DNA from: Minisyncoccota bacterium
Lineage (GTDB): Bacteria > Patescibacteriota > Minisyncoccia > Minisyncoccales > JAGOPM01
Assembly: GCA_041651395.1 (NCBI GenBank)
Contig: JBAZJI010000002.1
Location: 13,010-77,009, forward strand
Direction of reading: 5' to 3'
DNA length: 64,000 nucleotides
Shown: piece after piece, positions 22,416 to 62,536 of the stretch
Layout: each line of letters opens with the position of its first letter
How positions within the stretch are numbered: the first letter of the stretch is position 1
The notes under the pieces: generated by a model
Database searches by the model: none
The model's input: the letters and a program-made list of their open reading frames with translations, nothing else
What the model was told of the DNA's origin: nothing
Position numbers and translations under genes: made by a program

Positions 22416-22418
22416 CAG

Positions 22419-22490: not shown

Positions 22491-22497
22491 ATAAAAG

Positions 22498-22568: not shown

Positions 22569-22573
22569 ATTAG

Positions 22574-30223: not shown

Positions 30224-30253
30224 GTTTTTTACTCATTAAATTTTGGAGGTTAT

Positions 30254-38413: not shown

Positions 38414-38450
38414 AAAAATAGAGTGGAATTTGTTTCCACTCTATTTTTTG
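38414..38450. terminator. bidirectional terminator between convergent genes
   Basis: 11-bp stem aatagagtgga/tccactctatt flanked by A-run and T-run. Confidence 0.7.
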
Positions 38451-39364: not shown

Positions 39365-39391
39365 TATACCAGCAATTGGTAAATGTGCAAG

Positions 39392-39643
39392 TTATTGTTT
39401 ATAACTAAACTCTTCAATCACTCTATCCTTGAATGGATAGAGAACTATATAAATCAATTTCGGTTTTGATTCAGGATAGCGATTATGAATTATCCTAAGT
39501 GCTTTCAGTGCTTTCTTTTTGGTTTCATAGTATTTCGTACTGTGACAAAATCCATCTATCGGTTTATGTATGATTTTGTCTTTATGCCAAGTATACCCAT
39601 TATTCAATGTAATTTTAATTAGCTTATTACGCTTCCCCATCAA
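39392..39643 (-). CDS. hypothetical protein
   Basis: 83-aa ORF. Confidence 0.5.
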   Translation of the reverse strand: MMGKRNKLIKITLNNGYTWHKDKIIHKPIDGFCHSTKYYETKKKALKALRIIHNRYPESKPKLIYIVLYPFKDRVIEEFSYKQ

Positions 39644-39995
39644 ACCACCTCTTAATCGTTGCGATGGTCAAATCAACCTCATTGAAAAGCCGTTCTTGCT
39701 TTTCGTTGTCAAGGCAACTGAACTGAGTTCTAAAAACCTCTAAGCCGTCTTTCAGTCCCATTTCATCTATCATATCGGGAAACAGATCATTAGAGGTTCT
39801 CTTTGAGAGAATAGCATAACACCATTCTTTAACTCCCTCTAGTTCCTTGTTTTGCCATTCATTATACAGCCCGATCATACAGCGCTTCAGTTGATGATAA
39901 TAGGCTGTAATCTTAGTACCATCTTCTAACCAACAGATACAATTCTGTTTACCCGTTGGGCGATACTCTTTATAATTCCAGGTTTTGTAATTCAT
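39627..39995 (-). CDS. hypothetical protein
   Basis: 122-aa ORF. Confidence 0.55.
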   Translation of the reverse strand: MNYKTWNYKEYRPTGKQNCICWLEDGTKITAYYHQLKRCMIGLYNEWQNKELEGVKEWCYAILSKRTSNDLFPDMIDEMGLKDGLEVFRTQFSCLDNEKQERLFNEVDLTIATIKRWFDGEA

Positions 39996-39996
39996 T

Positions 39997-40809
39997 TTAG
40001 TTTACCTTTATTCCTGTAATTTCTTCAAACACCGTTGCATCAAACCATTCCCATTCTACAAATTCTTTCTTTAGTTCTTCTGGGATTGACCTCCACCAAA
40101 TCTCACAAGCCGTTTTATAATCGCGCTTTAACAATACCCCTTCTTGACATTCGTACTTTTTGTACTCTTCTTTCTCTTCTTCTGTCATATCGTCAAATGA
40201 CAGCCAGTATGTTAATGGAAATTCGTAATTGTACAACAAACAGCGAATGTTTTCATACTTGTCGTCATTAAAGAAGTCTTCAAACTCAATATCGGTTTGC
40301 TTGTTAAAAATGCGCATTTTTGGAGTATCGCTGCAAAACAATCCTGAATTCCAATTGCCTGAATTCCAATTGCCTGAATTCCTATCGCCTGAATTCCAAT
40401 CGCCTGAATTCCAATCGCCTGAATTCCTATCGCCTGAATTCCAATCGCCTGAATTCCTATCGCCTGAATTAGCTAATCCGCTATTAGCTTTACCCAAATT
40501 TACCACTTCAAGAACTTCATTCCAAGTTAATTCTCGAACAATTTCAATATCATCTGTAACGCTCTTATCATCACTGTCAAAAACTTCACCACGTGCAACA
40601 ACTTCACACACACGGTTTCTAATATCGAATGAATAATAATTAAAAACGTCTTTAGCCTTACGACAAAAATGAAAGCCAGATTCGCACAATTCAATCCTGC
40701 CATTATGCTTATAACGTTTTCCAACCTCATATTGAAAGTTGTTACGACACTGCAAATTTTCATCAAAACATTTGTATCCTGTAACCATTTCTATTCTCCT
40801 TTTCTCCAA
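39997..40809 (-). CDS. protein with tandem N-S-G-(D/N)-(W/R) pentapeptide repeats
   Basis: 270 aa; NSGLANSGDRNSGDWNSGDRNSGDWNSGDWNSGDRNSGNWNSGNWNSG central array; N-terminal Cys/His domain ...CESGFHFC... Confidence 0.65.
   Translation of the reverse strand: MEKRRIEMVTGYKCFDENLQCRNNFQYEVGKRYKHNGRIELCESGFHFCRKAKDVFNYYSFDIRNRVCEVVARGEVFDSDDKSVTDDIEIVRELTWNEVLEVVNLGKANSGLANSGDRNSGDWNSGDRNSGDWNSGDWNSGDRNSGNWNSGNWNSGLFCSDTPKMRIFNKQTDIEFEDFFNDDKYENIRCLLYNYEFPLTYWLSFDDMTEEEKEEYKKYECQEGVLLKRDYKTACEIWWRSIPEELKKEFVEWEWFDATVFEEITGIKVN
40343..40470. repeat. 8.5 tandem copies of a 15-bp unit (cctgaattcc[at]at[tc]g)
   Basis: Direct reading; each unit carries GAATTC; encodes the pentapeptide array on the minus strand. 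Confidence 0.9.
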
Positions 40810-41042
40810 TACTCTATCGAATTTTTCTTTTCAAAACCTAATCCTAAAAGCGTGCTTTCAGCATCTTCTAAGGTAAACCACATCGTTTGATGTTCTAACA
40901 TTTCACACGGCGCTTGCCCGTGTTTAATCACCGGTTGACGTTTGTTGTCAACATTATACGTTGTCTTTCCAACAAGATCGAAACCATTATACCGATTATG
41001 CTCCCAATGGAGCAGATCATACAACTTGACCTGTTCTTCCAT
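40791..41042 (-). CDS. hypothetical protein
   Basis: Start moved to MEEQVKLYDLLHW (GGGGAG SD); N-terminal part of ORF 40791-41321 overlaps the better ORF in another frame. Confidence 0.5.
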   Translation of the reverse strand: MEEQVKLYDLLHWEHNRYNGFDLVGKTTYNVDNKRQPVIKHGQAPCEMLEHQTMWFTLEDAESTLLGLGFEKKNSIEYWRKGE

Positions 41043-41346
41043 ATTTCTCCCCTGATTTACTAAACGTTTCATTAGTTGCCAACATTTCTTCCATATCTTC
41101 AAGATCAATATGGGATACACCGTGGTAATAATCTTCTTCTTTGGTAAACCCGTCCTCAATGATTGGGCAGTTTGGATTACGGCAAACTCCCCAAATTGAA
41201 GTATAGCGTTTGTCTTTTGTATCTTCAAACACCATAACAATTTCCCAATCATAACCGGCGCAACACAAGCCAGTATAAATATCGTCAACCTTAACCTCGC
41301 CAGTTGTTGTAATTTCACCATCTTCTTCTAAATGTACTTCAAGCAT
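41017..41346 (-). CDS. hypothetical acidic protein
   Basis: Start moved to MLEVHLEEDG (AAGGAG SD). Confidence 0.5.
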   Translation of the reverse strand: MLEVHLEEDGEITTTGEVKVDDIYTGLCCAGYDWEIVMVFEDTKDKRYTSIWGVCRNPNCPIIEDGFTKEEDYYHGVSHIDLEDMEEMLATNETFSKSGEKYGRTGQVV

Positions 41347-41377: not shown

Positions 41378-41406
41378 ATTTTACACCCATTGGGCTATCC
41401 TGTCAA
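41378..41406 (-). promoter_or_regulatory. promoter TTGACA-17-TAAAAT
   Basis: Reverse complement of tgtcaa 41401-41406 and atttta 41378-41383. Confidence 0.45.
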
Positions 41407-41423
41407 TACCCAATTTCATAAAA

Positions 41424-41451
41424 TTGACAAATTAGTTATTTGTGCTATAAT
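41424..41451 (+). promoter_or_regulatory. promoter TTGACA-16-TATAAT (TGcTATAAT) for the glycan island
   Basis: ttgacaaattagttatttgtgctataat; ATG 41459 is 8 nt past the -10 (leaderless-type). Confidence 0.6.
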
Positions 41452-41458
41452 TCTTGAA

Positions 41459-41827
41459 ATGGAAGTTACAAGAGAATACCTAATACAAAACAAGAATCAC
41501 ATCTTTGTTTTTGGAGACAACCAAAAACGTATTGGAACCGGTGGGGCAGCGAAACTTAGAGATTTACCCAACACCTACGGTTTCATAACTAAGAAATATC
41601 CCTGTAATCATAATTGGTGTTTTTATGCTTCCAGTGAATACATACCGGTTTATGCTTTTGAAATTGTCCGCTTGATTGCAGAGATTGAAAGCAATCCCGA
41701 CAAAATCTATCTAATCTCAAAGATCGGTAGTGGACTAGCTAACAAATTCAGAATCTTTGAAAACGTTATTGAACCTAGCATCAAAGCAGATTTGTCCCAA
41801 TATACTAACGTGGTGTTTTTATGGTAG
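41459..41827 (+). CDS. hypothetical protein (HIFVFGDN..RIGTGGAA motif)
   Basis: Start moved to MEVTREYL because upstream ORF codons cover the promoter; family not recognised. Confidence 0.5.
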   Translation: MEVTREYLIQNKNHIFVFGDNQKRIGTGGAAKLRDLPNTYGFITKKYPCNHNWCFYASSEYIPVYAFEIVRLIAEIESNPDKIYLISKIGSGLANKFRIFENVIEPSIKADLSQYTNVVFLW

Positions 41828-42528
41828 ATATATCAGTTCTCTTAGTAACGTTCGGTAGACCCAAAGAAATCAGAAAGACGGTTTACGAACTTCTAAAGCA
41901 TCAAAATTACCCACTGGAAAATTTACACTTTCATCTTGCGGATAATGATACCGAAAGGCGTTTAGGTATCAAAGATTACACTTCAATGATACTTTCTGAC
42001 TTTTCTTTTCTCAACTGGACATACTCAATTGAAACACGGCCAGGATGGGGATACAACGTTAATACGGTATTAAAACAGATAAACACGAATTATATCTTTT
42101 TAATTGAGGATGACTATGTTGCACATCGTCCAGTAGATTTGGTGTCTGGGGTAGAGTTAATGGAAGCACAAGCCAACATCGGTTTAATTCGTTATGATGG
42201 GATAGCAGCGCATAACGGCTTAATCCTTCACCTTAGAGAGGCAACAACACCCAATGGAAAGAAGATAGATTATTGTCTCATAGACAAGAGCAGTCAACAT
42301 CTTAATGTATACTCTAATCGCCCTCACCTTAGACACAGACGGTTTACCGATTGCTATGGATATTATATAGAAGGGAAAGCATTAGGAGTAACAGAAGAAA
42401 CGATGGCACATAATGTACTAGACAAGAAACAATGTCCAGATGTTGCCATCTTAGGAGACGGTATAGCGAATGCTTTTGAGCATATCGGCGCATCATTTCA
42501 GGGTAGCGAATTCGACAAAAGGAGCTAA
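41821..42528 (+). CDS. glycosyltransferase family 2-like
   Basis: ISVLLVTFGRP...LADNDTE...FLIEDDYV (GT-A fold, DxD-like). Confidence 0.6.
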   Translation: MVDISVLLVTFGRPKEIRKTVYELLKHQNYPLENLHFHLADNDTERRLGIKDYTSMILSDFSFLNWTYSIETRPGWGYNVNTVLKQINTNYIFLIEDDYVAHRPVDLVSGVELMEAQANIGLIRYDGIAAHNGLILHLREATTPNGKKIDYCLIDKSSQHLNVYSNRPHLRHRRFTDCYGYYIEGKALGVTEETMAHNVLDKKQCPDVAILGDGIANAFEHIGASFQGSEFDKRS

Positions 42529-42531
42529 AAA

Positions 42532-42762
42532 ATGGATAAGAAAAATGATTTAATTTTAGAACTGAATAAATGTCTTGAAACAGCCGTTGGAATTAAGTTT
42601 AAGTTGAGAGAGTTAGTAGAAGATAATAGAGAATCTGCGTCTGGGATTGACCCGATTGCAAAACTAGATGTGGCAATGATTAGAACAGAAGATTTATATA
42701 AAACGTTAAAAGAAATTAACGAACTGTCAACAAGAATTATTTCATACTTTGGGGTAGAATAA
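42532..42762 (+). CDS. hypothetical protein
   Basis: 76-aa ORF. Confidence 0.5.
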   Translation: MDKKNDLILELNKCLETAVGIKFKLRELVEDNRESASGIDPIAKLDVAMIRTEDLYKTLKEINELSTRIISYFGVE

Positions 42763-42766
42763 TCCT

Positions 42767-43009
42767 GTGGTTAGTACTCCTAACTATACCAAAGCGCAAT
42801 TACTCAAACGAAGGTTGACAGTTGCCTTTCTGTTGTTGTTAAACTTACACCCGTTCAAAGCGGTATCTATGTTGTATACCGCTTTATGGTTTTATTTCAA
42901 CGACGATAGAATCAAGAAAAGTCACGAAGTAGTTGTGTACGGAAACCATAAAAAATATACAACTGATGGAATTCTTATATTTGATGAAAAAGGAAAATCG
43001 GTAGAATAA
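42767..43009 (+). CDS. hypothetical membrane protein
   Basis: 80 aa, GTG start, one to two hydrophobic helices. Confidence 0.4.
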   Translation: MVSTPNYTKAQLLKRRLTVAFLLLLNLHPFKAVSMLYTALWFYFNDDRIKKSHEVVVYGNHKKYTTDGILIFDEKGKSVE

Positions 43010-43011
43010 AA

Positions 43012-43290
43012 ATGAATAAAGAACAACTTGAAGGATATTTATTGGCCTGTTGTGATTCGATTGATAGACTCATAGAAACAGGAAAACTAAAAGAGGATGA
43101 TCTGGCCGGTAAACTTGCAGAGAATTTGAGAGAGTATATCAGACTTAACCAGCCGGCAGGTTGGCAGTGGTGGCATTATCAAACCTATCCTATATATACA
43201 ACAACATCAAGCTCAAAAATTTGTCAATACTGTGGAAAAACTATCGGTGAAAACGAATTACACTTTTGTAGCGGTTGCAACACATTATGA
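43012..43290 (+). CDS. hypothetical protein with C-terminal CxxC...CxxC
   Basis: 92 aa; CQYCGK...FCSGC. Confidence 0.5.
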   Translation: MNKEQLEGYLLACCDSIDRLIETGKLKEDDLAGKLAENLREYIRLNQPAGWQWWHYQTYPIYTTTSSSKICQYCGKTIGENELHFCSGCNTL

Positions 43291-44180
43291 AAGCAGTTGT
43301 AACCGGAGGCGCGGGGTTTATCGGTTCACACTTGTGTGAACAACTTATAAATGAGGGACATTCGGTTAAATGTGTTGATAATCTCCTTAGTGGAAAAGTT
43401 GACAATATCATGCATCTAATTGACAACCCGCTGTTTGAATTTAGCTATGCTGATATTAGAGACAACCTTAATTTAGCTGGTGTTGACGTTATCTTTAACT
43501 TAGCAGCAAGTAAAAAGAACATCTGTTTAGACAACCCCAAAACAGACTTGGCTATAAACGGATGGGGAACTCTCAACTTATTACAACTTGCACAGAAGTA
43601 TGGCGTTAGAAAGTTTATTCACGCCTCTACCGGTAGTGTATACGGAAACGTTACACCACAAACTGAAACTTCACAAACTATACCAGTTAGTTACTATGGA
43701 GTTAGTAAACTAGCCGGTGAAAGTTATGTCAAGATGTTTGGTGTTGATTACTCAATCCTAAGGTATTTTCACGTTTATGGAAGCCGACAAGATAGCACCG
43801 ATAAACTAGGGGGAGTTATCGCTATTTTCATTAGAAGGATTTATCAAAACCTTCCCCTAATTGTGTATGGCGACGGCAATCAAACCCGTTGCTTTACCTA
43901 CGTTAAAGATGTAGTTAAAGCAAATCTGGCAATGCTTAATAAAACAGAAAACAATCTATTTAATTGTGTGAGCAATCTACACATAACCTTAAATCAACTT
44001 ATACAAATTCTTTTTGAAATTACCGGCAGAAAAGTACAAGTATTATATCGAGACTGGCAAATTGGCGATATAAAAGACTTTGCTCCAAGCAATGATAGAA
44101 TCAAAGAGTTAATTGACTTCACTCCATTTGAAACAGGATTACAGGAAACCATAGATGAAAGTCGCCGTTTATACTGCTAA
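43287..44180 (+). CDS. NAD-dependent sugar-nucleotide epimerase/dehydratase (SDR)
   Basis: VVTGGAGFIGSHL Rossmann motif, catalytic YGVSKLAGE (YxxxK); ATGA overlap start. Confidence 0.85.
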   Translation: MKAVVTGGAGFIGSHLCEQLINEGHSVKCVDNLLSGKVDNIMHLIDNPLFEFSYADIRDNLNLAGVDVIFNLAASKKNICLDNPKTDLAINGWGTLNLLQLAQKYGVRKFIHASTGSVYGNVTPQTETSQTIPVSYYGVSKLAGESYVKMFGVDYSILRYFHVYGSRQDSTDKLGGVIAIFIRRIYQNLPLIVYGDGNQTRCFTYVKDVVKANLAMLNKTENNLFNCVSNLHITLNQLIQILFEITGRKVQVLYRDWQIGDIKDFAPSNDRIKELIDFTPFETGLQETIDESRRLYC

Positions 44181-44796
44181 TTTTGGAGAAAGTGAAGTAT
44201 ATACACCCGTAGCTATAGAGATGGGTGTAGATTACTTCTATTTTACAGATAGGCCAGTATCGTTAGAGCACTGGATTGTCAAAACGGTTGAAAGACGTTT
44301 TGACAATCCCAGATTGGAATCACGGTATTATTTTGATAACTCAACAACTGTACTCCCAGATTATGATATAACCATAATGCACGGCGCTAATGCGCAGTTG
44401 TTAATCAGTCCGCTGAGCCTTATAGATATGTTTATCAAATCAGACATAGCTGCATTTAACCATCCCCACAGAAATTGTATCTATAAGGAAGCCGAGGTTT
44501 GCAAAGGAGTTGGGAAAGATTCTGCCGATAAAATAGACAAACAAATCAAACGGTATAAAGCAGCGGCCTTTCCATCTAACTATGGACTACACGCCTGTGG
44601 TTTAATTATTAGAAAAAACACAGAATCAGTACAAAACTTTGAATCATTATGGTGGCAAGAAGTATTGAACGGTTCATACCGTGACCAGCTATCATTCGAT
44701 TACATACGATGGAAAACTGGTATTTCAATTTCAGAAATACCGGGAAACATTTTTTCCAGTCCATACATTAGAATAAATTTACACAACAGGAAATGA
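44155..44796 (+). CDS. possible DUF616-type glycosyltransferase
   Basis: VAVYTANFG...DYFYFTD N-terminal pattern; assignment from memory of family consensus only. Confidence 0.4.
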   Translation: MKVAVYTANFGESEVYTPVAIEMGVDYFYFTDRPVSLEHWIVKTVERRFDNPRLESRYYFDNSTTVLPDYDITIMHGANAQLLISPLSLIDMFIKSDIAAFNHPHRNCIYKEAEVCKGVGKDSADKIDKQIKRYKAAAFPSNYGLHACGLIIRKNTESVQNFESLWWQEVLNGSYRDQLSFDYIRWKTGISISEIPGNIFSSPYIRINLHNRK

Positions 44797-45335
44797 TTAT
44801 GACAAGACCTTATTATTTAGATGTACCCGGTGCAGCATTAACCAAGAATGAACGGGAATTGATTGTAAAGCTATCTTCTGAATTTGAAGGAACTCCATTA
44901 TTTTTTGGAATTGGGGTAATGTGGGGAGGTTCTTTTCACTGTATGAGAGCCGGTAATCCTAATGCTGAAATCTATGGATTAGATATAGATTACTACACTT
45001 ACCGTATTCATAGAGAAGACTTGATTAAAGCCATATTCTTAAAGGGGAATAGCACAACTTACCAATTCGACAAACCGATAGATTTTTTATTTGTGGACGG
45101 CGCGCATGATTATAATACAGTAAAAGCTGATATAGCCAACTGGAAAGATCGGGTTAAAGTTGATGGCATTATTGCTTTTCACGATTTCAAACCAAAACAA
45201 GTTGACGTTGACCTTTTCCCATCTATTGTTGGTGTAAATAAAGCGGTTATGGAATCAGAACTAACACAAGTTGGAAAAAGATTTATACAAATAGAACAAG
45301 TAGATTCAATTATAGCATTTAGGAGAATAGAATAA
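44793..45335 (+). CDS. class I SAM-dependent methyltransferase
   Basis: FGIGVMWGGS (motif I-like), YGLDID, FVDGAHDY, IIAFHD. Confidence 0.6.
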   Translation: MIMTRPYYLDVPGAALTKNERELIVKLSSEFEGTPLFFGIGVMWGGSFHCMRAGNPNAEIYGLDIDYYTYRIHREDLIKAIFLKGNSTTYQFDKPIDFLFVDGAHDYNTVKADIANWKDRVKVDGIIAFHDFKPKQVDVDLFPSIVGVNKAVMESELTQVGKRFIQIEQVDSIIAFRRIE

Positions 45336-45904
45336 TGCCAACTGATGATGAAATTTATGGACGTTCTGCACTAAAAAACGGTGAACCCTGGATAACACCA
45401 GAGAGTCTTAAACATTTAAGAACAATTATAAAACCACATTGGAACGTGTTTGAATGGGGCAGCGGCGGAAGTACTGCGTTTTGGTCAAGAAACTGTAAAT
45501 CAGTTATCAGTATTGAACACAATTCAGAGTGGATACAACGGACAACCGACATTGTGAATCGGTTAAACTGTCCGCATAACTATACAATCATTTATGTAAA
45601 AGGTGACGGAACAACCGATCATACTAAAGCCTTTAGGGAATACGCTAATGCGATTCTTGAATATCCCGATAATAGTTTTGACTTGGTATTTATAGACGGC
45701 GAGGCATCAAGCAGAGGGTGGTGTATAACCAATGCTTTGCCAAAACTAAAGAGCGGCGGTTGTCTGTTAGTTGACAACTCCAACTGGTTAAAAGAATCTC
45801 CATCGAATACAACCAATAGATTAGACTTCATTGAAAAAGGATTAAAATGGGTTGGTCAACCAGGAACTTTTGACTGGCATACATCCATCTTTACGAAAGA
45901 ATAA
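45335..45904 (+). CDS. class I SAM-dependent methyltransferase-like
   Basis: FEWGSGGST, VISIEHN, FIDGE, GGCLLVDN. Confidence 0.55.
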   Translation: MPTDDEIYGRSALKNGEPWITPESLKHLRTIIKPHWNVFEWGSGGSTAFWSRNCKSVISIEHNSEWIQRTTDIVNRLNCPHNYTIIYVKGDGTTDHTKAFREYANAILEYPDNSFDLVFIDGEASSRGWCITNALPKLKSGGCLLVDNSNWLKESPSNTTNRLDFIEKGLKWVGQPGTFDWHTSIFTKE

Positions 45905-45911
45905 TTGTATA

Positions 45912-46574
45912 ATGATAACTTGCGTTATAGTCAACTTCAAAACAAAAAATTTAACTGAAAAATGTATAGAAACCTTCAGAAAATTTTATAGTCATCCGAT
46001 CATCCTTATTGACAATAATTCTGCTGACGATTCTACCGAATTTTGCAAAAACGCCTTTACAAAATATAATGACATTACACTGTTGTTAAACAACAAAAAT
46101 ATAGGACATGGGCCAGCTATGCATCAAGCAATTTTGCTTGCAACCACTCCGTATATTTTCACATTAGATAGCGACACAGAAACATTACAAGGAACGTTCT
46201 TAGAATCAATGTTGCTTGAATTCGACAAACAAGAAAATTTGTATGCAATCGGTTGGCGGCGTTATGTAAATTGTGATGGTGTATCTGGCGACGAAAAGCA
46301 AAACAAAAATCTAACCCCTTACATCCATCCGTATGCAATGCTAATTGACCGCGCAAAATACCTAACTTTACCAAAATTTGAAGATCACGGCGCACCTTGT
46401 CGAAGCAATATGTATGCAGCTTTTAAAGCAAATTATACATTAAGTGATTTTAATTTGAAGCCGTACATAAAACATTGCATAGCAGGAACGCGCAGAATGT
46501 ACAATGGTTATTGGCATCCTAAAGAAACCGATAAACCGTCAGAATGGAAAGAAAAGGCGACTTATCCAATTTAG
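45912..46574 (+). CDS. glycosyltransferase family 2
   Basis: Start at MITCVIVNFKT; ILIDNNSADDS; FTLDSDT (DxD). Confidence 0.65.
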   Translation: MITCVIVNFKTKNLTEKCIETFRKFYSHPIILIDNNSADDSTEFCKNAFTKYNDITLLLNNKNIGHGPAMHQAILLATTPYIFTLDSDTETLQGTFLESMLLEFDKQENLYAIGWRRYVNCDGVSGDEKQNKNLTPYIHPYAMLIDRAKYLTLPKFEDHGAPCRSNMYAAFKANYTLSDFNLKPYIKHCIAGTRRMYNGYWHPKETDKPSEWKEKATYPI

Positions 46575-46660
46575 AGAGCTTCCTACTGCATTTTTCGATT
46601 GTTTTTGAAAAGTGGGTAATAACACTTAAAAACAACACGAAAACACTATACATTTTCCTA

Positions 46661-46703
46661 AAATTCCCCACAAAAACTCTATAAAGTGGGGAATTTTTCT
46701 TTG
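46661..46703 (+). terminator. terminator aaattccccac...gtggggaattt + T-run
   Basis: 11-bp stem, 14-nt loop, followed by ttctttg. Confidence 0.55.
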
Positions 46704-46837
46704 TGCAAAATAACTTTCATCAAACTGCGCCATCTGTTTATCTTAGTGCAAATGGGGAATATACCCTAGAGTTGCCCATAATTTATAGGTCAAAGTGGTG
46801 ATTGCAAGGCGCATAATCGGTATAAAGTGGGGAATTT
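46680..46837 (+). repeat. two exact 17-nt direct repeats tataaagtggggaattt plus degenerate GTGGGGAAT-like boxes
   Basis: Copies at 46680-46696 and 46821-46837; variants gaaaagtgggtaat (46607) and gcaaatggggaatat (46749) within a 465-bp non-coding gap. Confidence 0.7.
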
Positions 46838-46980
46838 GTCCACAATTTAATATTGCAACGATAGCAATTTACACAATGAGTATTACGCAGTCAAAAACAG
46901 CCAATGTTAAAGAGCATTTAGGCGTGAAATATACATAACACAAATACACCCGTGTATTTATACCTTGAAATCGCCCTGAA

Positions 46981-47008
46981 TTGACACAAATAGAATGTGT
47001 GGTATAAT
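46981..47008 (+). promoter_or_regulatory. promoter TTGACA-16-TATAAT (TGTGGTATAAT)
   Basis: ttgacacaaatagaatgtgtggtataat. Confidence 0.6.
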
Positions 47009-47039
47009 TGCAGCATTTAGAAAAGGAGTTATATAAATT

Positions 47040-47327
47040 ATGTTGAGAGTATGCACACGATGTAATCAAGAAAATGACCATGATGGAAGTTATTGCCAAT
47101 TTTGTGGCAACAGTATACTACTATCTGCAATTGATAATGACGATAGCATTATTTATTGGGTACAAACTCCATACGAACTTGGAGAATTTTTGGATGTTTA
47201 TAAAGACAAAACAAAGTTGAGTTATCAACAATTATATGTGTTGTACAACAACCTTCGCGGAATTAAAATTAGAGCAACAATTATCGGTAATAACTCATTA
47301 AAATTTGAGATTGTAGATAATGAATAA
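47040..47327 (+). CDS. zinc-ribbon protein
   Basis: CTRCNQ...YCQFCGN N-terminal ribbon. Confidence 0.55.
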   Translation: MLRVCTRCNQENDHDGSYCQFCGNSILLSAIDNDDSIIYWVQTPYELGEFLDVYKDKTKLSYQQLYVLYNNLRGIKIRATIIGNNSLKFEIVDNE

Positions 47328-47511
47328 CGCCATTTCGTTAGATGACATTAAAAGTAATAACGTGAATTATTGTCTGTACTGTGGACGGTTCATCTATCCG
47401 AGTATTGATTCAGGATGGGAAGGATTTACCGCCGATGGTGTAACTACACAGAAGATTTGTGTGTTTTGTAATCTTGAAAGAAATCACGAAATAATTGAGA
47501 AGGCACAATGA
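47320..47511 (+). CDS. hypothetical zinc-binding protein
   Basis: YCLYCG...CVFCN. Confidence 0.5.
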   Translation: MNNAISLDDIKSNNVNYCLYCGRFIYPSIDSGWEGFTADGVTTQKICVFCNLERNHEIIEKAQ

Positions 47512-47726
47512 ACGAAAAACAAGAAACAGTAAACCACCCATCCCATTACAATCAAGTTCCGGGGATAGAGTGTATTGACGTTGTAAAGCACTTTGACTTC
47601 ATTATAGGAAGCTGCATAAAATATTTATGGCGTGCTGGACACAAATTCAACACAACAAAACTTGAAGATTTGAAAAAAGCCAAGTGGTATATTGAATATG
47701 CTATCGCGCAAGAAGAAAAGCAATGA
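47508..47726 (+). CDS. DUF3310 family protein
   Basis: NHPSHYN...IECIDV...IKYLWRAGHK...EDLKKAKWYIEY. Confidence 0.75.
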   Translation: MNEKQETVNHPSHYNQVPGIECIDVVKHFDFIIGSCIKYLWRAGHKFNTTKLEDLKKAKWYIEYAIAQEEKQ

Positions 47727-47845
47727 ATGATGTATGGCTTGTCGCTTTTGAACTTGGTGTAATTGTGTACAGTTTAGCGCTAATGCGCTCTGTATTGAAA
47801 GACATAAACCAAACATTAAAACAGATACGGAACAAAATGCAATGA
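47723..47845 (+). CDS. hypothetical small membrane protein (40 aa)
   Basis: Hand translation MNDVWLVAFELGVIVYSLALMRSVLKDINQTLKQIRNKMQ*; ATGA overlaps at both ends. Confidence 0.4.
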   Translation: MNDVWLVAFELGVIVYSLALMRSVLKDINQTLKQIRNKMQ

Positions 47846-48093
47846 AAAGAAGAATCGGTAAGTACATAATCAATACTGACCTGATAACGCATATTTATAA
47901 AGAAGATGAAAGTATACATTATAGTACAAACTCATCGCAAACCACTTGGGTTACTACAAGAGACTTAAACGAACCAGAAACAATATTCATTTGCTTTGGA
48001 GAGTGCTTTTTGAGATTTTACAAAGGATATGATGACGGATACAACGAAGCCTTAGCCTTATACAACGAGTTTGACAATGAAACAAAATTATAG
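47842..48093 (+). CDS. hypothetical protein
   Basis: 83-aa ORF. Confidence 0.5.
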   Translation: MKRRIGKYIINTDLITHIYKEDESIHYSTNSSQTTWVTTRDLNEPETIFICFGECFLRFYKGYDDGYNEALALYNEFDNETKL

Positions 48094-48292
48094 ACTTTTC
48101 AACAGTTGTTTAACCTGCAAGTACTGTTTTCAAGAATTGGAATTTGTCTGTACATTTTATGAAAAGATGCCTTGCGAAAAAGTACCCAACATTCTTACAG
48201 ACATAGCAATCATTGAAAAATATTTGATGTGGGAAAACTCAAACAAAGTACAGTGCAATGGAATTTGTGATAACTATGAACATAGAAATTAA
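48077..48292 (+). CDS. hypothetical Cys-rich protein
   Basis: Start taken at ATG (MKQNYRLF); CLTCKYC...CNGICDNYEH. Confidence 0.5.
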   Translation: MKQNYRLFNSCLTCKYCFQELEFVCTFYEKMPCEKVPNILTDIAIIEKYLMWENSNKVQCNGICDNYEHRN

Positions 48293-48512
48293 AGCTAATA
48301 AGATAATTTTTGATAACGATATTGAAATGAGTTATGATACACTATTAAACTCTATCCGGTATACATCCAATTGGCTTGCAACCCTCATAGAAGCTAAACA
48401 AGCATTTGATAAGACGGGAGTAACAGAACAACAGGTAGAGTTTATAGAATGCGCTTGTTCTAAAGATCGTGGGTGTATCAACAACGTTCTAAGGATGTTG
48501 GGACAATTATGA
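48276..48512 (+). CDS. hypothetical protein
   Basis: Start taken at MNIEIKANK. Confidence 0.45.
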   Translation: MNIEIKANKIIFDNDIEMSYDTLLNSIRYTSNWLATLIEAKQAFDKTGVTEQQVEFIECACSKDRGCINNVLRMLGQL

Positions 48513-48742
48513 AAGATATGTATTCAAACAAATTAACTAGGTTTATTGGACACACATTCTATATGCTTGGAGCTTATTCAGGCGATTATAACGAAACACC
48601 TTCTCAGGTTTTTGATAATATAAAGAAATACGGCATATTTTCACCGATTAGAAGTTATTATTATAATAGTGGCATACACTATTGGCTTAATGGTGAAGAT
48701 TCTTTTATGAATGTCATCAAAAGGATTTTCTCAACAAAATGA
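48509..48742 (+). CDS. hypothetical protein
   Basis: Start at MKDMYSNKL (ATGA overlap). Confidence 0.45.
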   Translation: MKDMYSNKLTRFIGHTFYMLGAYSGDYNETPSQVFDNIKKYGIFSPIRSYYYNSGIHYWLNGEDSFMNVIKRIFSTK

Positions 48743-49608
48743 AACTTTTAATGCTTCCAAAATTATCAGACGTTGGAACTAATAACGGTATAGGCCAGGT
48801 CATTCTCAATTATTGGAACTGGCTTCCAAAAGTCGGCATTGAACTAACCGATAATCCAGACGACAGTTATGATATATCCTCTAGCCATTTAGGCAAAATC
48901 GCTAATGCTGATTTGTGCTTTCTTCACGGTTTTTGGTTTGGTAAAGTTAGTAACCTAATGTCAGAACAAAATGCGCTCATTATAGAATCAATTCGCAATG
49001 CTAAGGCGGTTATAGTACCTAGTGAGTATGTTGCCGAAACAGTGCGGAGAGATTTTAGAATCAATCCTTATATCATCGGTCACGGGGTCAATATGTCAGA
49101 GTGGAAAGGCGCAAAACCGAAAGGCTATGTGCTATGGAATAAAAACCGCCCGTCCGATGTATGCAACCCTGAACCGGTTTATGAGTTGGCAAAACGCCAT
49201 CCTAAAGTTAAATTCGTTACCACCTTCTATCCGATGGACAGAACACCTATTCCTGATAATGTACAGATAGTTGGAAAGGTATCCTTCGATCAAATGAAAC
49301 AGCTTATCAAAGGCGCTTCTATCTATCTCTCAACCGCTAAGGAAACCTTCAATATCAGCGCCTTAGAGAACTTAGCCTGTGGCACTCCGATTCTAGGATG
49401 GAATTGGGGAGGGACAGCCGATATAGTATGGAATAAAAAAGACGGTTATCTAGTTAATGTTGGCGACTATGACGCACTTTCAGACGGTTTAGAATGGTTA
49501 CTAGAGAATAGACAACAACTAACAGCGGCTTGCAAAAACAAAGCAATGATGTATAATTGGCTTGACGTTGCAAAGAAAATTAGAGAGGTGTGTTATAATG
49601 TCTATTAA
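48739..49608 (+). CDS. glycosyltransferase family 1/4 (GT-B)
   Basis: C-terminal KETFNISALENLACGTPILG (E-x7-E region). Confidence 0.7.
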   Translation: MKLLMLPKLSDVGTNNGIGQVILNYWNWLPKVGIELTDNPDDSYDISSSHLGKIANADLCFLHGFWFGKVSNLMSEQNALIIESIRNAKAVIVPSEYVAETVRRDFRINPYIIGHGVNMSEWKGAKPKGYVLWNKNRPSDVCNPEPVYELAKRHPKVKFVTTFYPMDRTPIPDNVQIVGKVSFDQMKQLIKGASIYLSTAKETFNISALENLACGTPILGWNWGGTADIVWNKKDGYLVNVGDYDALSDGLEWLLENRQQLTAACKNKAMMYNWLDVAKKIREVCYNVY

Positions 49609-49921
49609 CGTAAAAGAAGCCCGCGAACTAGTCGCAAGATGTATTGAAACTTTAGATGATAACAAAACGGTAGAGGATGGGGATGTTGATACCCTCTGCG
49701 CCATTATCAATCAAATGTGTGAACACATTGAAAATACTAAAGAGCATAAATTGCTTACAACAGAAGAACAAACCATTATCGAAATGTTAACCGATGTGTG
49801 GAACTTATTTTTAGAACTTCCAGAGTTACACAGAAGTGATACAGTAGAATTTATGCAAGGTATTCACCTTTTACAGAACATCATTCTGGCTAGGATTCAT
49901 TTAAGATATGGCAAAAGTTGA
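49598..49921 (+). CDS. hypothetical protein
   Basis: Start at MSINVKEAREL. Confidence 0.45.
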   Translation: MSINVKEARELVARCIETLDDNKTVEDGDVDTLCAIINQMCEHIENTKEHKLLTTEEQTIIEMLTDVWNLFLELPELHRSDTVEFMQGIHLLQNIILARIHLRYGKS

Positions 49922-52058
49922 CATAATTATAACCTGCTATAATAAGGAAGCGACTATCGCTAGAGCGATAGAATCAGTCAAACGGCAAACGTTGACAGAC
50001 TTCTTTTGTATCGTTGTGGATGATGGTAGCACTGATAATTCTTGGTCAGTTATCAACAAAGAGATAAATAAAGACAAGAGGTTTATTGCCATCCAACTAA
50101 AAAACTGTGGTGTTGCTAATGCTAGAAACGTTGGAATTGGTTACGGCAATTCACCGTATATTACCTGTTTAGATGGGGATGATGGCCTTATTGACAGATT
50201 TTTACAAACCTGTTACGACGCAATTAAAACCGATAGAAGTTTAGGAGTTGTCTATACAGAAGTATTACTAAACCATCCCGATGATAACTTTACCATAGCC
50301 GATTGGACAAAACCAGATCATAATGCACAGTTTGAAGGAAAAAATCAAGTTCCCTGTTGCAATATGTTCAGACGTGACTTGTTTGATAGAGTGGGCGGGT
50401 ATCGGCAACGTTACAGTCCAAAAGGAGCAGGTGCAGAAGATGCAGAATTATGGTTACGATTTTTCAAACTAGGATACAAAGCGAAAAAGGTAACAGAAGA
50501 ACCGTTATTTATCTACAACGCTTTCGGCGGTTTAACTCAGGATGGAAACTATACCGAGGTCAACTGGATTAACTGGCATACTACAAAACCATCCCCATCA
50601 TTACAAAATCCTGAAAACGGTATTGTTCACATCGTCAATGAATACGACAGACCTGAAATCAGCGTTATCATACCGGTTATAGAAAAACACTTACACTATC
50701 TACAAGATGCCTTAGATTCATTAGAAGCGCAAACCTTTACCAACTGGGAATGTATTGTAGTTTTCGACATTGAAGATTCTATCATCAAAACCATCAAAGA
50801 ACTTGAATACTATGAGAAAGCCTATCCCTATGTAAAATTTTTGTACACATCTGGGGGATTAGGTGCAGGTTGTGCAAGAAATGCTGGTGTTGAATATTCA
50901 ATAGGTGAGTACCTAGTATTTTTAGATGCAGATGATTATTTACAACCTAGATTTTTAGGATTATGTCTGTCTGCTCTCAAACACTTCAATGCAGATTGGG
51001 TATATACCGATTTGTATTCTCAGACAATACACAGCAGAGAACAATTCGAGAAAGAGAAAAACAACGAATCTAAAATCATTAGAGAACGTAAAGAATGGGT
51101 AGAGTTTATCCAACCGTATCACAATGAGGAATGGAGTGTAGAAAAGTTACACCATAGTGGAATTGCGGCGGTTACAGCGCTTTATAAAAAATCAGACTTT
51201 GAACTGGTAGAAGGATTCGATCAAGAGAACAACCGAGAAGATTGGGACTTCCATATGAGATTGGCTAAAGCTGGCAAATGTGGCTTGAGGTTGCCCTTAC
51301 CACTTTTAACATATCGCCTTAATACTGGAATTCGCAGGGAGTATGTTGGAACCGCTAGAGATTCAGAAGAAAGCAAACAATTAAAGCAAAAGGATGTTGA
51401 TAGAATTCACACACAATATGATTTAGGAGAATTGAAAATGGCTTGCAGTACTTGTAAACAAAAGAAAATTGACATTCAGAAACAAACCAATAACGCCCCA
51501 GAACTATATACCCTAGAGTATACCGGCAAAATTACCGGGGGGGTAGTTACCGGTCCGGTAACTCGCAAACAATATCCACTAAACAACTATAAAGGAAAAG
51601 TGATAGTATATAAGGTAGCTCCGCAAGACGCCCAAGCATTAGTCGGTAGGGGTTTGTTCGTACCATTGAACACAGAAAACAAACAAGCTCCGGAGTCGGT
51701 TATTGTTGCTCCTACACCTGCTAAAGTGGAAGTGGTTAAACTATCGCATACCGATAGATTAAAAGCTTCTATGGAATTTGCAGAGAAGGCGAAAAAAGAA
51801 GCACAACTACAAATGGAAGCCGAGTTAGCCGCTTGGGAAATTGCAAGTGACGAAGCCTTAGAAAAAACCGAAAAAGAACTAGACACAACCGTAACTTGGA
51901 TAGACAATCCTGGAAGTTTTTCACTCGCCACATTAAAATCTTATGTCAATACTGAGAAGCCAAGTCAAGAGCGATTACAACTAGCCTACGACAATGAGGC
52001 GATGGGCAAAGCGCGTAAAAGTGTTTTAAATTTTTTGAAGGGGAAAGACACATACTAA
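49908..52058 (+). CDS. bifunctional protein with two GT2 glycosyltransferase domains and a C-terminal extension
   Basis: Domain 1 VDIIITCYNKE...VVDDGSTDNS...LDGDD; domain 2 ISVIIPVIEKH...FLDADDYL; C-terminal ~250 aa with CSTCKQKK and helical tail. Confidence 0.75.
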   Translation: MAKVDIIITCYNKEATIARAIESVKRQTLTDFFCIVVDDGSTDNSWSVINKEINKDKRFIAIQLKNCGVANARNVGIGYGNSPYITCLDGDDGLIDRFLQTCYDAIKTDRSLGVVYTEVLLNHPDDNFTIADWTKPDHNAQFEGKNQVPCCNMFRRDLFDRVGGYRQRYSPKGAGAEDAELWLRFFKLGYKAKKVTEEPLFIYNAFGGLTQDGNYTEVNWINWHTTKPSPSLQNPENGIVHIVNEYDRPEISVIIPVIEKHLHYLQDALDSLEAQTFTNWECIVVFDIEDSIIKTIKELEYYEKAYPYVKFLYTSGGLGAGCARNAGVEYSIGEYLVFLDADDYLQPRFLGLCLSALKHFNADWVYTDLYSQTIHSREQFEKEKNNESKIIRERKEWVEFIQPYHNEEWSVEKLHHSGIAAVTALYKKSDFELVEGFDQENNREDWDFHMRLAKAGKCGLRLPLPLLTYRLNTGIRREYVGTARDSEESKQLKQKDVDRIHTQYDLGELKMACSTCKQKKIDIQKQTNNAPELYTLEYTGKITGGVVTGPVTRKQYPLNNYKGKVIVYKVAPQDAQALVGRGLFVPLNTENKQAPESVIVAPTPAKVEVVKLSHTDRLKASMEFAEKAKKEAQLQMEAELAAWEIASDEALEKTEKELDTTVTWIDNPGSFSLATLKSYVNTEKPSQERLQLAYDNEAMGKARKSVLNFLKGKDTY

Positions 52059-52065
52059 AAAATTA

Positions 52066-52100
52066 TACTGGCAGATTATCTTATCTGCCAGTATTTGTTT
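52066..52100 (+). terminator. rho-independent terminator
   Basis: 11-bp stem tactggcagat/atctgccagta plus tttgttt. Confidence 0.65.
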
Positions 52101-60169: not shown

Positions 60170-60501
60170 CTAAGAAAAAGAAAGTGATTGTACCAAAACC
60201 AGAAGCGGTAGAAGATGGGTACAATGAGGGCGATTATGGTTTTGTGAAGGTTTCATACAATGGCGACTTAACCATTAAGGTAAATGGATGTAAGACGGGG
60301 AATCGGTATCTATTCGGTAAGGGGTCGGTAAGATCAGTTGATTATGGGGATGCTCAGTGTTTGTTCGATCTAATGCCGGGCGCTTTCCAAGAAGTTGTAG
60401 AAGTTGTAAAAAAAGCGGCAAAGAAAGCTATACCAGTTGTTGAGAGTTTAGAAGATGGCATTAAAACCGATAATTCCGAGAGTGAATATATCCCAAGCTG
60501 A
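60145..60501 (+). CDS. hypothetical protein
   Basis: 118-aa ORF. Confidence 0.5.
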   Translation: MACCGQRITKKKKVIVPKPEAVEDGYNEGDYGFVKVSYNGDLTIKVNGCKTGNRYLFGKGSVRSVDYGDAQCLFDLMPGAFQEVVEVVKKAAKKAIPVVESLEDGIKTDNSESEYIPS

Positions 60502-60934: not shown

Positions 60935-60949
60935 GCGGAGGTTTAAGGT

Positions 60950-61468: not shown

Positions 61469-61482
61469 GGGGATTATAAATT

Positions 61483-62454: not shown

Positions 62455-62536
62455 ATAGCGTGTCTGTACAAGGTCAGTTGATTTTAGTTTACTCCTTTAC
62501 AGAATCAACTGACCTTGTTTACAAAAGGAGAACAAA

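Follow-up and report, generated by a model that had tools for sequence, protein, structure and literature searches.

Organization of the island

The window, by which we mean the whole 64,000-nucleotide stretch of DNA analysed here, comes from an uncultured tailed phage and carries a block of glycan genes on its plus strand at 41459-52058. A preliminary description of this DNA had given the block as 41459-46574 and 47040-52058 with a 465-bp gap between the two parts; our recheck of the open reading frames agrees with it in layout and coordinates, and the gap is real. It had also put the block between capsid genes and neck and tail genes, and this holds as well, with an HK97-fold protein on one side and genes for a tape-measure protein, Dit and Sipho_Gp37 on the other. 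The island and its surroundings comprise the following features.

36962-38395, plus strand: major capsid protein, HK97 fold, conserved left anchor (AF2 pLDDT 74.6; Foldseek)
38414-38448, plus strand: terminator-like hairpin 3' of the capsid gene, 15-bp stem followed by a T run
41424-41451, plus strand: perfect sigma-70 promoter of island unit 1 (sequence scan)
41459-41827, plus strand: DUF7831 protein (Pfam 2.5e-17)
41821-42528, plus strand: GT2-like glycosyltransferase, 235 aa (Pfam 23.8 bits, cutoff 23.3)
42532-43290, plus strand: three small ORFs of 76, 80 and 92 aa (no significant Pfam match)
43275-44180, plus strand: extended SDR sugar-nucleotide epimerase/dehydratase, variable cassette (Pfam Epimerase 1.9e-52)
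44155-44796, plus strand: TOD1/MUCI70 (former DUF616) glycosyltransferase-like protein, variable cassette (Pfam 1.1e-13)
44793-45335, plus strand: class I SAM methyltransferase, Methyltransf_24 (Pfam 3.4e-12)
45335-45904, plus strand: class I SAM methyltransferase, Methyltransf_24 (Pfam 5.8e-08)
45912-46574, plus strand: GT2 glycosyltransferase, 220 aa from ATG 45912, variable cassette (Pfam 3.1e-18)
46575-47039, plus strand: 465-bp intergenic gap
47040-48742, plus strand: nine small ORFs, including a zinc-ribbon-like one and DUF3310 (47508-47726)
48739-49608, plus strand: GT-B (GT4-like) glycosyltransferase, Glycos_transf_1, lineage-conserved core (Pfam 1.8e-17)
49562-49921, plus strand: small ORF at the point where GT-B and double GT2 are fused in most relatives (PHROG 13916 fragment match)
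49908-51362, plus strand: double GT2, two GT-A domains, lineage-conserved core (Pfam 3.5e-49, two stretches)
51363-52058, plus strand: C-terminal module of the double GT2, whose ORF spans 49908-52058 in all (alignment; AF2 pLDDT 74.5)
52065-52094, bidirectional: terminator-like hairpin that closes the island (hairpin scan)
52520-53797, plus strand: conserved 425-aa protein, next after the glycosyltransferase core in relatives
59807-60169, plus strand: DUF1360 small membrane protein
60145-60501, plus strand: 118-aa protein (u118), first of the neck genes, stand-alone paralogue of the CxxC beta domain

The island forms two plus-strand units, each preceded by a perfect sigma-70 promoter of the same class as those ahead of replication genes such as UvrD. 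The -10 hexamer of the first promoter ends 7 nt upstream of ATG 41459, so the unit 1 mRNA is probably leaderless. The 465-bp gap holds a hairpin (46660-46697), four copies of the 11-nt repeat AAGTGGGGAAT spaced about 70 nt apart, the unit 2 promoter (TTGACA-16-TATAAT, 46981-47008) and an AAGGAG ribosome-binding site. Since both units have their own consensus promoters and a terminator insulates them from the capsid gene, late co-expression with the capsid is not evident in this phage.

Pfam profiles, the annotation that the preliminary description had proposed, confirm its glycosyltransferases, SDR enzyme, two SAM methyltransferases and DUF616-type protein, and raise its "at least four" glycosyltransferase genes to five glycosyltransferase-like ORFs with six such domains. 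Its dozen or so small proteins of unknown function are present, only that at 47508-47726 having a family. The DUF7831 gene overlaps the gene at 41821 and, in the two closest relatives, comes first in the block; its product is 61-76% identical in loci L097 and L098. The GT2 at 41821 has a borderline Pfam score, yet relatives keep the gene at 42-87% identity. It carries the motif EDD96, is 77-87% identical in L097 and L098, and has homologues (42-54%) 0.1-1.1 kb after the capsid gene in L007, L008 and L010, with an HNH gene intervening in the last; it is thus the conserved "first" glycosyltransferase of expanded islands. In the SDR enzyme the motifs GGAGFIGS and YGVSK are visible in translation; its only NCBIfam match is generic, GalE-like and under the cutoff, and locus comparison found no homologue in L098. 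The TOD1/MUCI70 ORF matches PHROG 26101, a glycosyltransferase group, the second methyltransferase has a homologue in L098 (53% identity), and the GT2 at 45912 contains DSD106 and has no homologue in L097 or L098 by the same comparison. Segment prediction found no membrane segments in the glycosyltransferases and other enzymes of the island, all of which are soluble. The 92-aa ORF of the first small group is kept in L097 and L098, and most of the nine at 47040-48742, which are probably passengers, in L098; the dozen or so small ORFs, DUF7831 and DUF3310 together probably make up the passenger part of the block.

The glycosyltransferase core and its C-terminal module

The GT-B protein has an E-x7-E motif at 202 and is 32-81% identical across relatives, in which 19-124 bp separate it from the double GT2; the small ORF at 49562-49921 is found in L098 too. 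The double GT2 carries the catalytic-type motifs DGD89 and DAD340 and has 990 homologues. Its nearest solved sequence (1e-17) is K4CP, the E. coli K4 chondroitin synthase or polymerase (PDB 2Z86), which likewise has two GT-A domains per chain; however, the match covers one domain only, at low identity, and does not imply polymerase activity, and the N-terminal GT-B partner and C-terminal module are additional here.

Four elements make up the module: a basic beta domain with CxxC (51417-51674), a linker rich in Pro that bears a conserved SPTP-like motif, a long acidic helix, and an end of three helices with E..GK.RK. It has no match in Pfam, PDB or BFVD. In relatives the core glycosyltransferase ends in a helical or, in many of them, a helix-hairpin-helix region, and the combination of CxxC beta domain, Pro-rich linker and helical or helix-hairpin-helix end is a previously undescribed module. 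A search with it returned 500 hits, which are protein-cluster representatives. It also occurs apart from the enzyme, as a separate gene directly 3' of the capsid gene in L030, which has no glycosyltransferase, and as small ORFs between the double GT2 and the 425-aa gene in L022, L042 and L077. In the window, u118 aligns with the beta domain of the glycosyltransferase (hhalign probability 88.7%, E 2.5e-6; A5 HMM E 2e-4).

The capsid protein has 1528 homologues, none in a Pfam family; its top Foldseek matches are the HK97, phiXacJX1 and PhiTE capsids (E ~1e-9, probability 1.0). The 425-aa protein, 71-77% identical in L097 and L098 and 24-46% identical to homologues in the fetched loci, found no relative in Pfam, PHROG or PDB and is probably a head-completion or neck protein. 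Because the tape-measure, Dit and Sipho_Gp37 genes lie just beyond the window end, 60145-63028 can be taken as neck and tail genes. The 22-kb interval from capsid to neck also includes genes unrelated to glycans, for an HNH endonuclease, a pentapeptide protein, TnpB, ClpP and dCMP deaminase.

Capsid-adjacent glycan genes in related phages

We compared synteny in 58 metagenomic relatives whose loci extend 9 kb or more beyond the capsid gene on its downstream side. The GT-B plus double GT2 core, mostly one fused protein, follows the capsid gene by 35 bp to 9.5 kb in 45 of them, and one or more of the three conserved glycosyltransferases occur in 51. The order in relatives is portal, scaffold, major capsid protein, variable region, GT-B, double GT2, 425-aa gene and tail, with DUF1360 between the core and the 425-aa gene in many. 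Seven relatives show none of the three within 10 kb; in four of these seven there are still genes of glycan type, for a GT2, methyltransferase, TOD1 or SDR protein. In minimal relatives the fused glycosyltransferase starts 35-80 bp 3' of the capsid gene and the spacer contains no sigma-70-like promoter, and in L063 the capsid stop codon is directly followed by the ribosome-binding site of the glycosyltransferase; judged from this spacing, the two genes are likely co-transcribed there.

The DNA from capsid gene to core is a swap zone, whose genes across the lineage encode sulfo-, formyl-, methyl-, acetyl- and aminotransferases, dehydrogenases, SDRs and extra glycosyltransferases; even in L097 and L098, with flanking proteins 61-87% identical, the tailoring genes differ. 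Among 379 variable-region ORFs, just 3 contain at least three hydrophobic segments. The island and the relatives' variable regions essentially lack export machinery, and therefore the acceptor should be cytoplasmic. By these gene comparisons, the island is the form that a lineage-wide system next to the capsid gene takes in the window phage. The preliminary description had thought its size and complexity unusual for such a phage; it is instead the rule in the lineage, the window having one of the larger versions.

A possible role in virion glycosylation

Virion glycosylation, the lead idea of the preliminary description, gains comparative support from the lineage-wide position of the core after the capsid gene, from the promoterless minimal relatives and from soluble enzymes with export essentially absent. 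We consider it an even call that the island glycosylates virion proteins, and regard this as the best reading; the target is one that we infer, the capsid protein at 36962 being the likeliest acceptor. The kept core and swapped tailoring genes suggest, without proving, that the virus particles carry a sugar coat that varies. Intact enzyme motifs, synteny and cassette turnover within a conserved frame all favor virion glycosylation, as do the module kept next to the capsid gene in L030 and the u118 paralogue that heads the neck genes. Against it stand the early-class promoters and the terminator between capsid gene and island, the relatives that lack the conserved glycosyltransferases, and capsid-protein segments that do not differ between relatives with and without a detected glycosyltransferase.

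Under such a mechanism, virion proteins would be glycosylated in the host cytoplasm with no lipid carrier. The SDR enzyme would convert a host NDP-sugar, the accessory (41821, 44155 and 45912) and core glycosyltransferases would assemble a short oligosaccharide or repeat, and the two methyltransferases would O-methylate its sugars. The glycan could be attached to Ser/Thr in the capsid protein or in a protein bound to the capsid, for example in the Pro-rich linker of the C-terminal module, whose CxxC beta domain and helical end may tether the enzyme to its target. Swaps of cassette genes would alter the glycan between related phages, a variation like that of O-antigen loci, and, if so, imply an exposed surface under selection.

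Alternative targets

The preliminary description had also raised DNA hypermodification. The core glycosyltransferase, tethered to DNA by its beta/helix-hairpin-helix-type module, would add an oligosaccharide to a modified base before or during packaging, with the cassette supplying and tailoring the sugars. Helix-hairpin-helix domains are as a rule DNA binders, and HHH_5, which ends a subset of core-glycosyltransferase homologues, is the domain most often joined to the beta domain elsewhere (49 of 122 other beta-domain proteins, with HHH in 22), a point that also counts against virion glycosylation; the beta domain is basic (median charge +6). The window's own C-terminal end, however, matches no HhH, SAP or other Pfam family. 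The early-looking consensus promoters and the dCTP and dCMP deaminases encoded in the window would suit DNA modification. Sugars that are sulfated, formylated or methylated, or amino sugars, are not known to us from DNA. Cell-wall-related GT-A/GT-B enzymes, kin of teichoic-acid and LPS enzymes, do glycosylate phage DNA with multi-sugar products, at times beside structural genes (bioRxiv 10.1101/2023.12.21.572611), and a modification of thymidine with a mass near 1 kDa has been reported for phage YerA41. The defining neighbors of those DNA glycosyltransferases are a C5-MTase with a TET-like oxygenase, or a ThyA-type synthase, whereas here the constant neighbor is the capsid gene, and no C5-MTase, TET/5mYOX or ThyA-type hydroxymethylase was recognized in the roughly 78 kb of the 85-kb contig that were read, window and both flanks included. 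The phage has ThyX, whose product is ordinary dTMP, and no window protein matches a TAGT or T4-type glycosyltransferase family in Pfam. We think DNA an unlikely target.

Soluble glycosyltransferases at the inner membrane face might instead act on lipid-linked or wall precursors of the host, masking receptors (superinfection exclusion) or reducing the loss of progeny to cell debris. This has in its favor weak GtrB-like and TuaG/EpsD/WcaA-like matches of the GT2 domains, although the NCBIfam ones are all far under cutoffs, as well as TagF, TarP and TarS among the nearest solved relatives, and independent promoters that would permit early expression. We hold such host-envelope remodelling to be quite improbable: there is no GtrA-type flippase, membrane glycosyltransferase, Wzx/Wzy, ABC transporter or initiating phosphoglycosyl transferase, the window's glycosyltransferases lack membrane segments and the variable region has almost no multi-pass proteins, neither an integrase nor lysogeny genes turned up in the window or flanks, and the fixed post-capsid position and the module's retention in a phage without glycosyltransferases would go unexplained.

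Finally, it is very improbable that the post-capsid site is simply a permissive hotspot, with heterogeneous or host-metabolic glycosyltransferases and no common target, as its HNH endonucleases, TnpB, DNA N6/N4 methylases, DUF7831, DUF3310, pentapeptide protein and many small ORFs might suggest, because the core is kept, mostly fused, where capsid proteins are 33-58% identical to the window's and the variable genes are strongly enriched for sugar-nucleotide tailoring, which argues for a single pathway with passengers rather than a random collection.

Comparison with known systems

A precedent for virion glycosylation comes from mycobacteriophages, whose own glycosyltransferases modify capsid and tail-tube subunits, as PMC12363180 and PMC12619734 summarize; these together with PMC13313380 cite Freeman et al. 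2023 for virion glycosylation in Che8, Corndog and Myrna. Like the window's source, these are tailed phages with their own cytoplasmic glycosyltransferases, capsid and tail-protein glycans are the proposed products, and in some actinophages a methyltransferase accompanies the enzymes. The glycosyltransferases themselves have no detectable sequence relation, which is a further point against virion glycosylation here. The island differs also in its GT-B + GT2 + GT2 arrangement, mostly fused, with a dedicated C-terminal module, and in a core fixed beside the capsid gene across the lineage with a large swappable sugar-nucleotide cassette. The a-type flagellin glycosylation island of Pseudomonas aeruginosa is likewise a polymorphic block of glycosyltransferase and sugar-tailoring genes adjoining the gene of the polymerising protein that is modified, and such islands act in the cytoplasm with no lipid carrier; they serve a bacterial organelle rather than a virus, with other enzyme families. 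The giant viruses PBCV-1 and Mimivirus infect eukaryotes and have another capsid fold, but they too encode multi-domain glycosyltransferases, sugar-nucleotide enzymes and methyltransferases, and their autonomous capsid glycosylation is the subject of a review (PMC4691112).

Capsid gene and relatives of the phage

The window comes from a metagenomic contig of 85,485 bp (ENA ERZ27247363), of which SRR8542065 holds a near-identical copy. The terminase and head genes in it are the following.

19535, TerS
20038, TerL
26288-28429, 713-aa ORF, probable portal (by position only)
34413-36959, 848-aa ORF, scaffold-like (by position only)
36962-38395, 477-aa protein, predicted major capsid protein

The phage is tailed, and genes for a tape-measure protein, Dit and Sipho_Gp37 lie immediately beyond the end of the window. 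Apart from the capsid protein, position was the only basis for naming portal, scaffold and neck genes. The capsid protein has 1,528 homologues, none with a Pfam family, and its AlphaFold model (pLDDT 74.6, from an alignment of 42 homologues) matches HK97-type capsids with E ~1e-9 and probability 1.0; thus, as modelled, the 477-aa protein is the major capsid protein. Its C-terminal tail (residues 462-477) is disordered in the model.

None of the 50,697 records of the GenBank phage collection contains the capsid protein, the GT-B or the 235-aa GT2 of the island (the plus-strand glycan gene block at 41459-52058), and the lineage is therefore uncultured; it comprises more than 1,500 capsid protein clusters, none of them among the GenBank records searched. 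Megablast of the island against GenBank phages and a TerL-based scan of IMG/VR gave no match, TerL tblastn matched Streptomyces phages at only ~23% identity, and an exact-protein look-up of ThyX found no record. PDB sequence searches returned nothing meaningful for the putative portal, the scaffold-like ORF, the capsid protein, DUF7831 or, with single sequence and profile, the 425-aa protein encoded at 52520-53797; PPR matches to DUF7831 in the PDB sequence search had zero qualifying stretches and were rejected. A PHROGs search of the neck proteins and the glycosyltransferase C-terminus gave no match, and the lineage is absent from papers on Asgard and Bathyarchaeia viruses. For the host, three metagenome-assembled genomes matched, but their taxa (Altiarchaeales, Paceibacterota and Methanothrix) are incompatible, so that these matches are probably mis-binned.

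Enzymes of the island

The preliminary description had called glycosyltransferase, SDR and methyltransferase genes and a possible DUF616-type transferase in the island from sequence alone, and a Pfam search confirmed these calls, although at a borderline score for the GT2 at 41821-42528.

41821-42528 (+), GT2-like, 235 aa; Pfam score borderline, well conserved in relatives
43275-44180 (+), SDR Epimerase (Pfam)
44155-44796 (+), TOD1/MUCI70, formerly DUF616 (Pfam)
44793-45335 and 45335-45904 (+), two Methyltransf_24 genes (Pfam)
45912-46574 (+), GT2 (Pfam)
48739-49608 (+), GT-B, Glycos_transf_1 (Pfam)
49908-52058 (+), two GT2 domains (Pfam) followed by ~230 residues without a family; called dGT2 below

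The catalytic-type motifs of the island enzymes are intact. Against a Glycos_transf_2 (CAZy GT2) cutoff of 23.3 bits, the GT2 at 45912-46574 scores 66.7 bits (with DSD106) and the two domains of dGT2 score 167.4 bits (with DGD89 and DAD340), whereas the 235-aa GT2 barely passes at 23.8 bits, has EDD96 in place of DxD, and matched nothing in PHROG or NCBIfam. The GT-B, a protein of 289 aa with a short N-terminal half, is GT4-like (Glycos_transf_1, 63.9 bits versus 26.4) and has the E-x7-E motif as ETFNISALE at residue 202. The SDR is of the extended type (Epimerase, 178.5 bits), with GGAGFIGS for GxxGxxG and YGVSK for YxxxK; its best NCBIfam match is GalE at 125 bits versus a cutoff of 262, making it GalE-like only generically, and NCBIfam gave no specific function for any island enzyme. 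A small ORF (49562-49921), also present in the close relative L098, lies at the junction where most relatives have the GT-B fused to dGT2, and may mark a gene split; over 53 residues it matches a PHROG annotated 'DNA ligase'.

A fixed frame around an exchanged cassette

Relatives' loci were fetched through capsid protein homologues (12 from assemblies and 80 from IMG/VR) and the window proteins were mapped onto them by tblastn at E 1e-6 with 10-kb flanks. The conserved order is putative portal, scaffold-like gene, capsid gene, a variable stretch, GT-B, dGT2, often DUF1360, the 425-aa protein and tail genes. Both GT-B and dGT2 are present in 45 of the 58 loci that extend at least 9 kb past the capsid gene, and 51 of these loci carry one or more of the three conserved glycosyltransferases. 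The GT-B and dGT2 alignments are 19-124 bp apart, and the two are usually a single protein of 880-1,060 aa. The variable stretch can be as short as 35 bp or exceed 9.4 kb, and that of the window (10.3 kb) is one of the longest.

Individual relatives have in this stretch genes for UDP-sugar dehydrogenases, GFO/IDH/MocA oxidoreductases and SDRs, for transferases of several kinds (DegT amino-, hexapeptide acetyl-, sulfo- and methyltransferases and a formyltransferase) and for additional GT2s. The same sugar-tailoring picture emerges from a Pfam census of 148 cluster representatives (the top 25 of 82 families), in which TnpB and DNA N6/N4 methylases appear as passengers. The two closest relatives, L097 and L098, have frame proteins 61-87% identical to the window's and different cassettes (the swapped genes between the capsid gene and the GT-B): L098 has two methyltransferases and lacks the SDR, TOD1 and third GT2, and L097 has a sulfotransferase and one methyltransferase. 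Directly after its 425-aa gene L097 also has, at 11210-11902 (-), a gene of the Mom family (an adenine-modification family), without a counterpart in the window.

Proteins with at least three hydrophobic segments are encoded by just 3 of the 379 variable-region ORFs of the relatives, and no glycosyltransferase of the window has a membrane segment, which makes lipid-linked assembly and export appear unlikely; the glycan acceptor should, by the same reading of the genes, be cytoplasmic. An initiating phosphoglycosyl transferase with flippase and polymerase or transporter, as in Wzx/Wzy- or ABC-dependent loci, is absent from the window, and no family of these types is among the 25 (of 82) listed in the census.

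Transcription of the island

The island consists of two transcription units, each behind a perfect TTGACA-N16-TATAAT promoter (at 41424 and 46981), and terminator-like hairpins lie 3' of the capsid gene (38414) and 3' of dGT2 (52065). Ten perfect promoters with spacers of N16-18 occur in the window (7033, 7565, 13080, 17664, 28937, 41424, 46981, 54573, 55197 and 55525) against 0.07 expected; most have an extended -10 TG, and some precede replication genes. These promoters argue for a bacterial host that uses sigma-70. None lies directly before the TerL, putative portal, scaffold-like or capsid gene, which suggests that the phage may have two promoter classes. With consensus promoters of its own for both units, the island is here not obviously a late-operon passenger. 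The minimal relatives L011, L015 and L063 have nothing promoter-like between capsid gene and glycosyltransferase, and co-transcription of the two is probable in such genomes. Between capsid gene and fused glycosyltransferase, L011 (11500-11558) and L015 (11455-11535) have a GC-rich hairpin (GGGGGCGG...CCGCCCCC) without a T run, which might set the capsid to glycosyltransferase expression ratio.

The region 41379-41459 is a divergent promoter region in which the plus-strand -10 hexamer ends 7 nt 5' of the ATG at 41459, so the DUF7831 mRNA is probably leaderless. In the gap between the units, an 11-nt motif, AAGTGGGGAAT (one mismatch allowed), occurs four times (46610, 46684, 46750 and 46825) at spacings of 74, 66 and 75 nt; a 17-nt form, TATAAAGTGGGGAATTT, is restricted within the window to 46610-46835, and the repeats are possibly regulator binding sites. 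A 12-bp perfect hairpin (46660-46697) lies upstream of the second island promoter. Composition gives no sign of recent horizontal acquisition, the GC content of the island (0.34-0.40) being within that of the window (0.33-0.44).

The C-terminal module of dGT2

Conservation of residues 486-716 of dGT2 extends to about 30 of the 120 homologues listed. This module begins with a CxxC beta domain of basic charge, followed by a Pro-rich linker in which the motif (I/V)V(S/A)PTPxK recurs, then a long acidic helix and finally a small three-helix end with E..GK.RK; it has no counterpart in Pfam, the PDB or BFVD. A profile of the beta domain found 500 cluster representatives among 1.84 billion proteins, and many of the matches are small proteins starting MxCxxC; the top match, P0241 (5,318 aa), was discounted as a sum of weak repeat matches. 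With full-length triple fusions left out, HHH_5 occurs in 49 of 122 matches and GT2 domains in ~29. HHH_5 is present in a subset of the core glycosyltransferase homologues; the window's own C-terminus matches nothing in those three databases.

The whole module is a 186-aa gene directly 3' of the capsid gene in L030, which lacks the glycosyltransferases, and appears as separate small ORFs between dGT2 and the 425-aa gene in L022, L042 and L077. A 118-aa protein at the head of the neck genes (60145-60501) is a paralogue of its beta domain by profile methods, the link to the glycosyltransferase C-terminus being not significant by BLASTP. Because of these stand-alone forms, we infer that the module leads an independent life at the capsid-proximal position and that the glycosyltransferases were fused onto it.

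Candidate acceptors of the glycan

That the island glycosylates virion proteins is a reading we hold with about even confidence. It is favored because the neighborhood of the capsid gene is fixed, the enzymes are soluble and cassette turnover is O-antigen-like, and because co-transcription with the capsid gene is probable in minimal genomes, the module is capsid-proximal and can stand alone, and actinophages provide a precedent for phage virion glycosylation (PMC12363180, PMC12619734, PMC13313380). In mycobacteriophages the capsid and tail-tube subunits bear their glycans at the C-terminus. Among the relatives of the window phage, capsid protein segments, including the disordered C-terminal tail, do not differ between glycosyltransferase-bearing relatives and those without a detected one. 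When dGT2, GT-B and the 235-aa GT2 were compared by tblastn with the 50,697 phage records, no Mycobacterium phage matched, and similarity to glycosyltransferases such as Che8 gp110 or Corndog gp38 was therefore not detected.

DNA is an unlikely acceptor, in our estimate, and the case for it is mixed. In its favor, partners of the module include helix-hairpin-helix domains, the beta domain of the module is basic, the window phage has consensus promoters, and cell-wall-type glycosyltransferases have been recruited to DNA elsewhere (bioRxiv 10.1101/2023.12.21.572611). However, in known phage DNA hypermodification the enzyme that makes the hydroxymethyl handle is usually adjacent to the glycosyltransferase, and here no ThyA-type hydroxymethylase, C5-methylase or TET-like oxygenase (TET/5mYOX) was recognized in the ~78 of 85 kb read, comprising the window and about 10 kb to either side. 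What this search turned up was only ThyX, an enzyme that produces ordinary thymidylate, and the deaminases for dCTP and dCMP.

Remodeling of the host surface or envelope glycan is still less probable, as it would proceed without any membrane component and would leave the synteny unexplained. Its seroconversion form, which the preliminary description had listed, is not supported in its Gtr type, which has a GtrA flippase, GtrB and a multi-pass serotype-specific glycosyltransferase in a temperate phage, whereas the window glycosyltransferases lack membrane segments, no integrase was seen, and similarity to GtrB-like PHROGs is limited to the GT2 core. Of the readings named, the least probable is that the island is an unrelated hotspot after the capsid gene, and a small remainder of the probability goes to none of them.

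If virion proteins are the target, a widespread environmental lineage would count virion glycosylation among its core traits, with an enzyme architecture of its own and a source of diversity like that of O-antigen loci. The fuller proposal, in which we have somewhat less than even confidence, is that the particles of this large, uncultured lineage of siphoviruses are coated with glycan that the virus itself makes. The locus would then behave like a bacterial O-antigen locus: the capsid gene, the fused GT-B+GT2+GT2 and the anchoring module form a fixed frame, and cassettes for sulfo-, formyl-, methyl- and amino-sugars are freely exchanged within it. The C-terminal module would then dock the enzyme on the capsid or itself carry glycan there, and such phages would have 'serotypes'. 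To our knowledge, virus-made particle glycans among tailed phages are documented only in actinophages. The matter bears on phage escape from inactivation or sticking to surfaces, on the evolution of receptor-like glycans on viruses and on the supply of new soluble, carrier-independent glycosyltransferase, sulfo- and formyl-sugar toolkits. Were DNA the target, a DNA-glycan system without a recognizable hydroxymethylation step would be equally new, and for either target the conserved triple glycosyltransferase with its anchor module is a defined, cloneable test object.

Other genes of the locus

Two genes interrupt the head-gene block: a D5-type primase/helicase (23976-25412) between TerL and the putative portal gene, and the anaerobic ribonucleotide reductase NrdD (30212-32989) between the putative portal and scaffold-like genes, the latter at the same position in relative L005. 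A reverse-strand module (38441-41321) between capsid terminator and island holds a double HNH endonuclease, a DUF7666 and pentapeptide-repeat protein and two unknown proteins, and the tail module contains a LAGLIDADG gene (L003 15126-15926). A TnpB/OrfB_IS605 (Cas12f-like) gene (55941-57092), with two perfect promoters immediately upstream, lies between the 425-aa gene and ClpP; the relatives L013, L034 and L065 have TnpB copies in the variable region.

An eight-tRNA cluster (Met x2, Asn, Ser, Gly, Cys, Trp, Arg) lies at 22092-22983 (-), and past the left edge of the window are a CCA-adding enzyme, an RlaP nucleotidyltransferase, an RNA ligase and a TROVE/Ro60-like protein (L096 15865-22661); together these look like a tRNA repair set. 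An 886-aa fusion of SNF2-type helicase and N6/N4 DNA methylase (946-3606, -) adjoins ThyX (3682-4287) and a dCTP deaminase-like gene (4600-5190). Finally, a BNR/Ycf48-like beta-propeller protein is encoded among the tail genes (61483-62454; L011 15471-16985), fused in L011 to a homologue of the 172-aa protein that precedes the propeller, and may be a tail-tube decoration.
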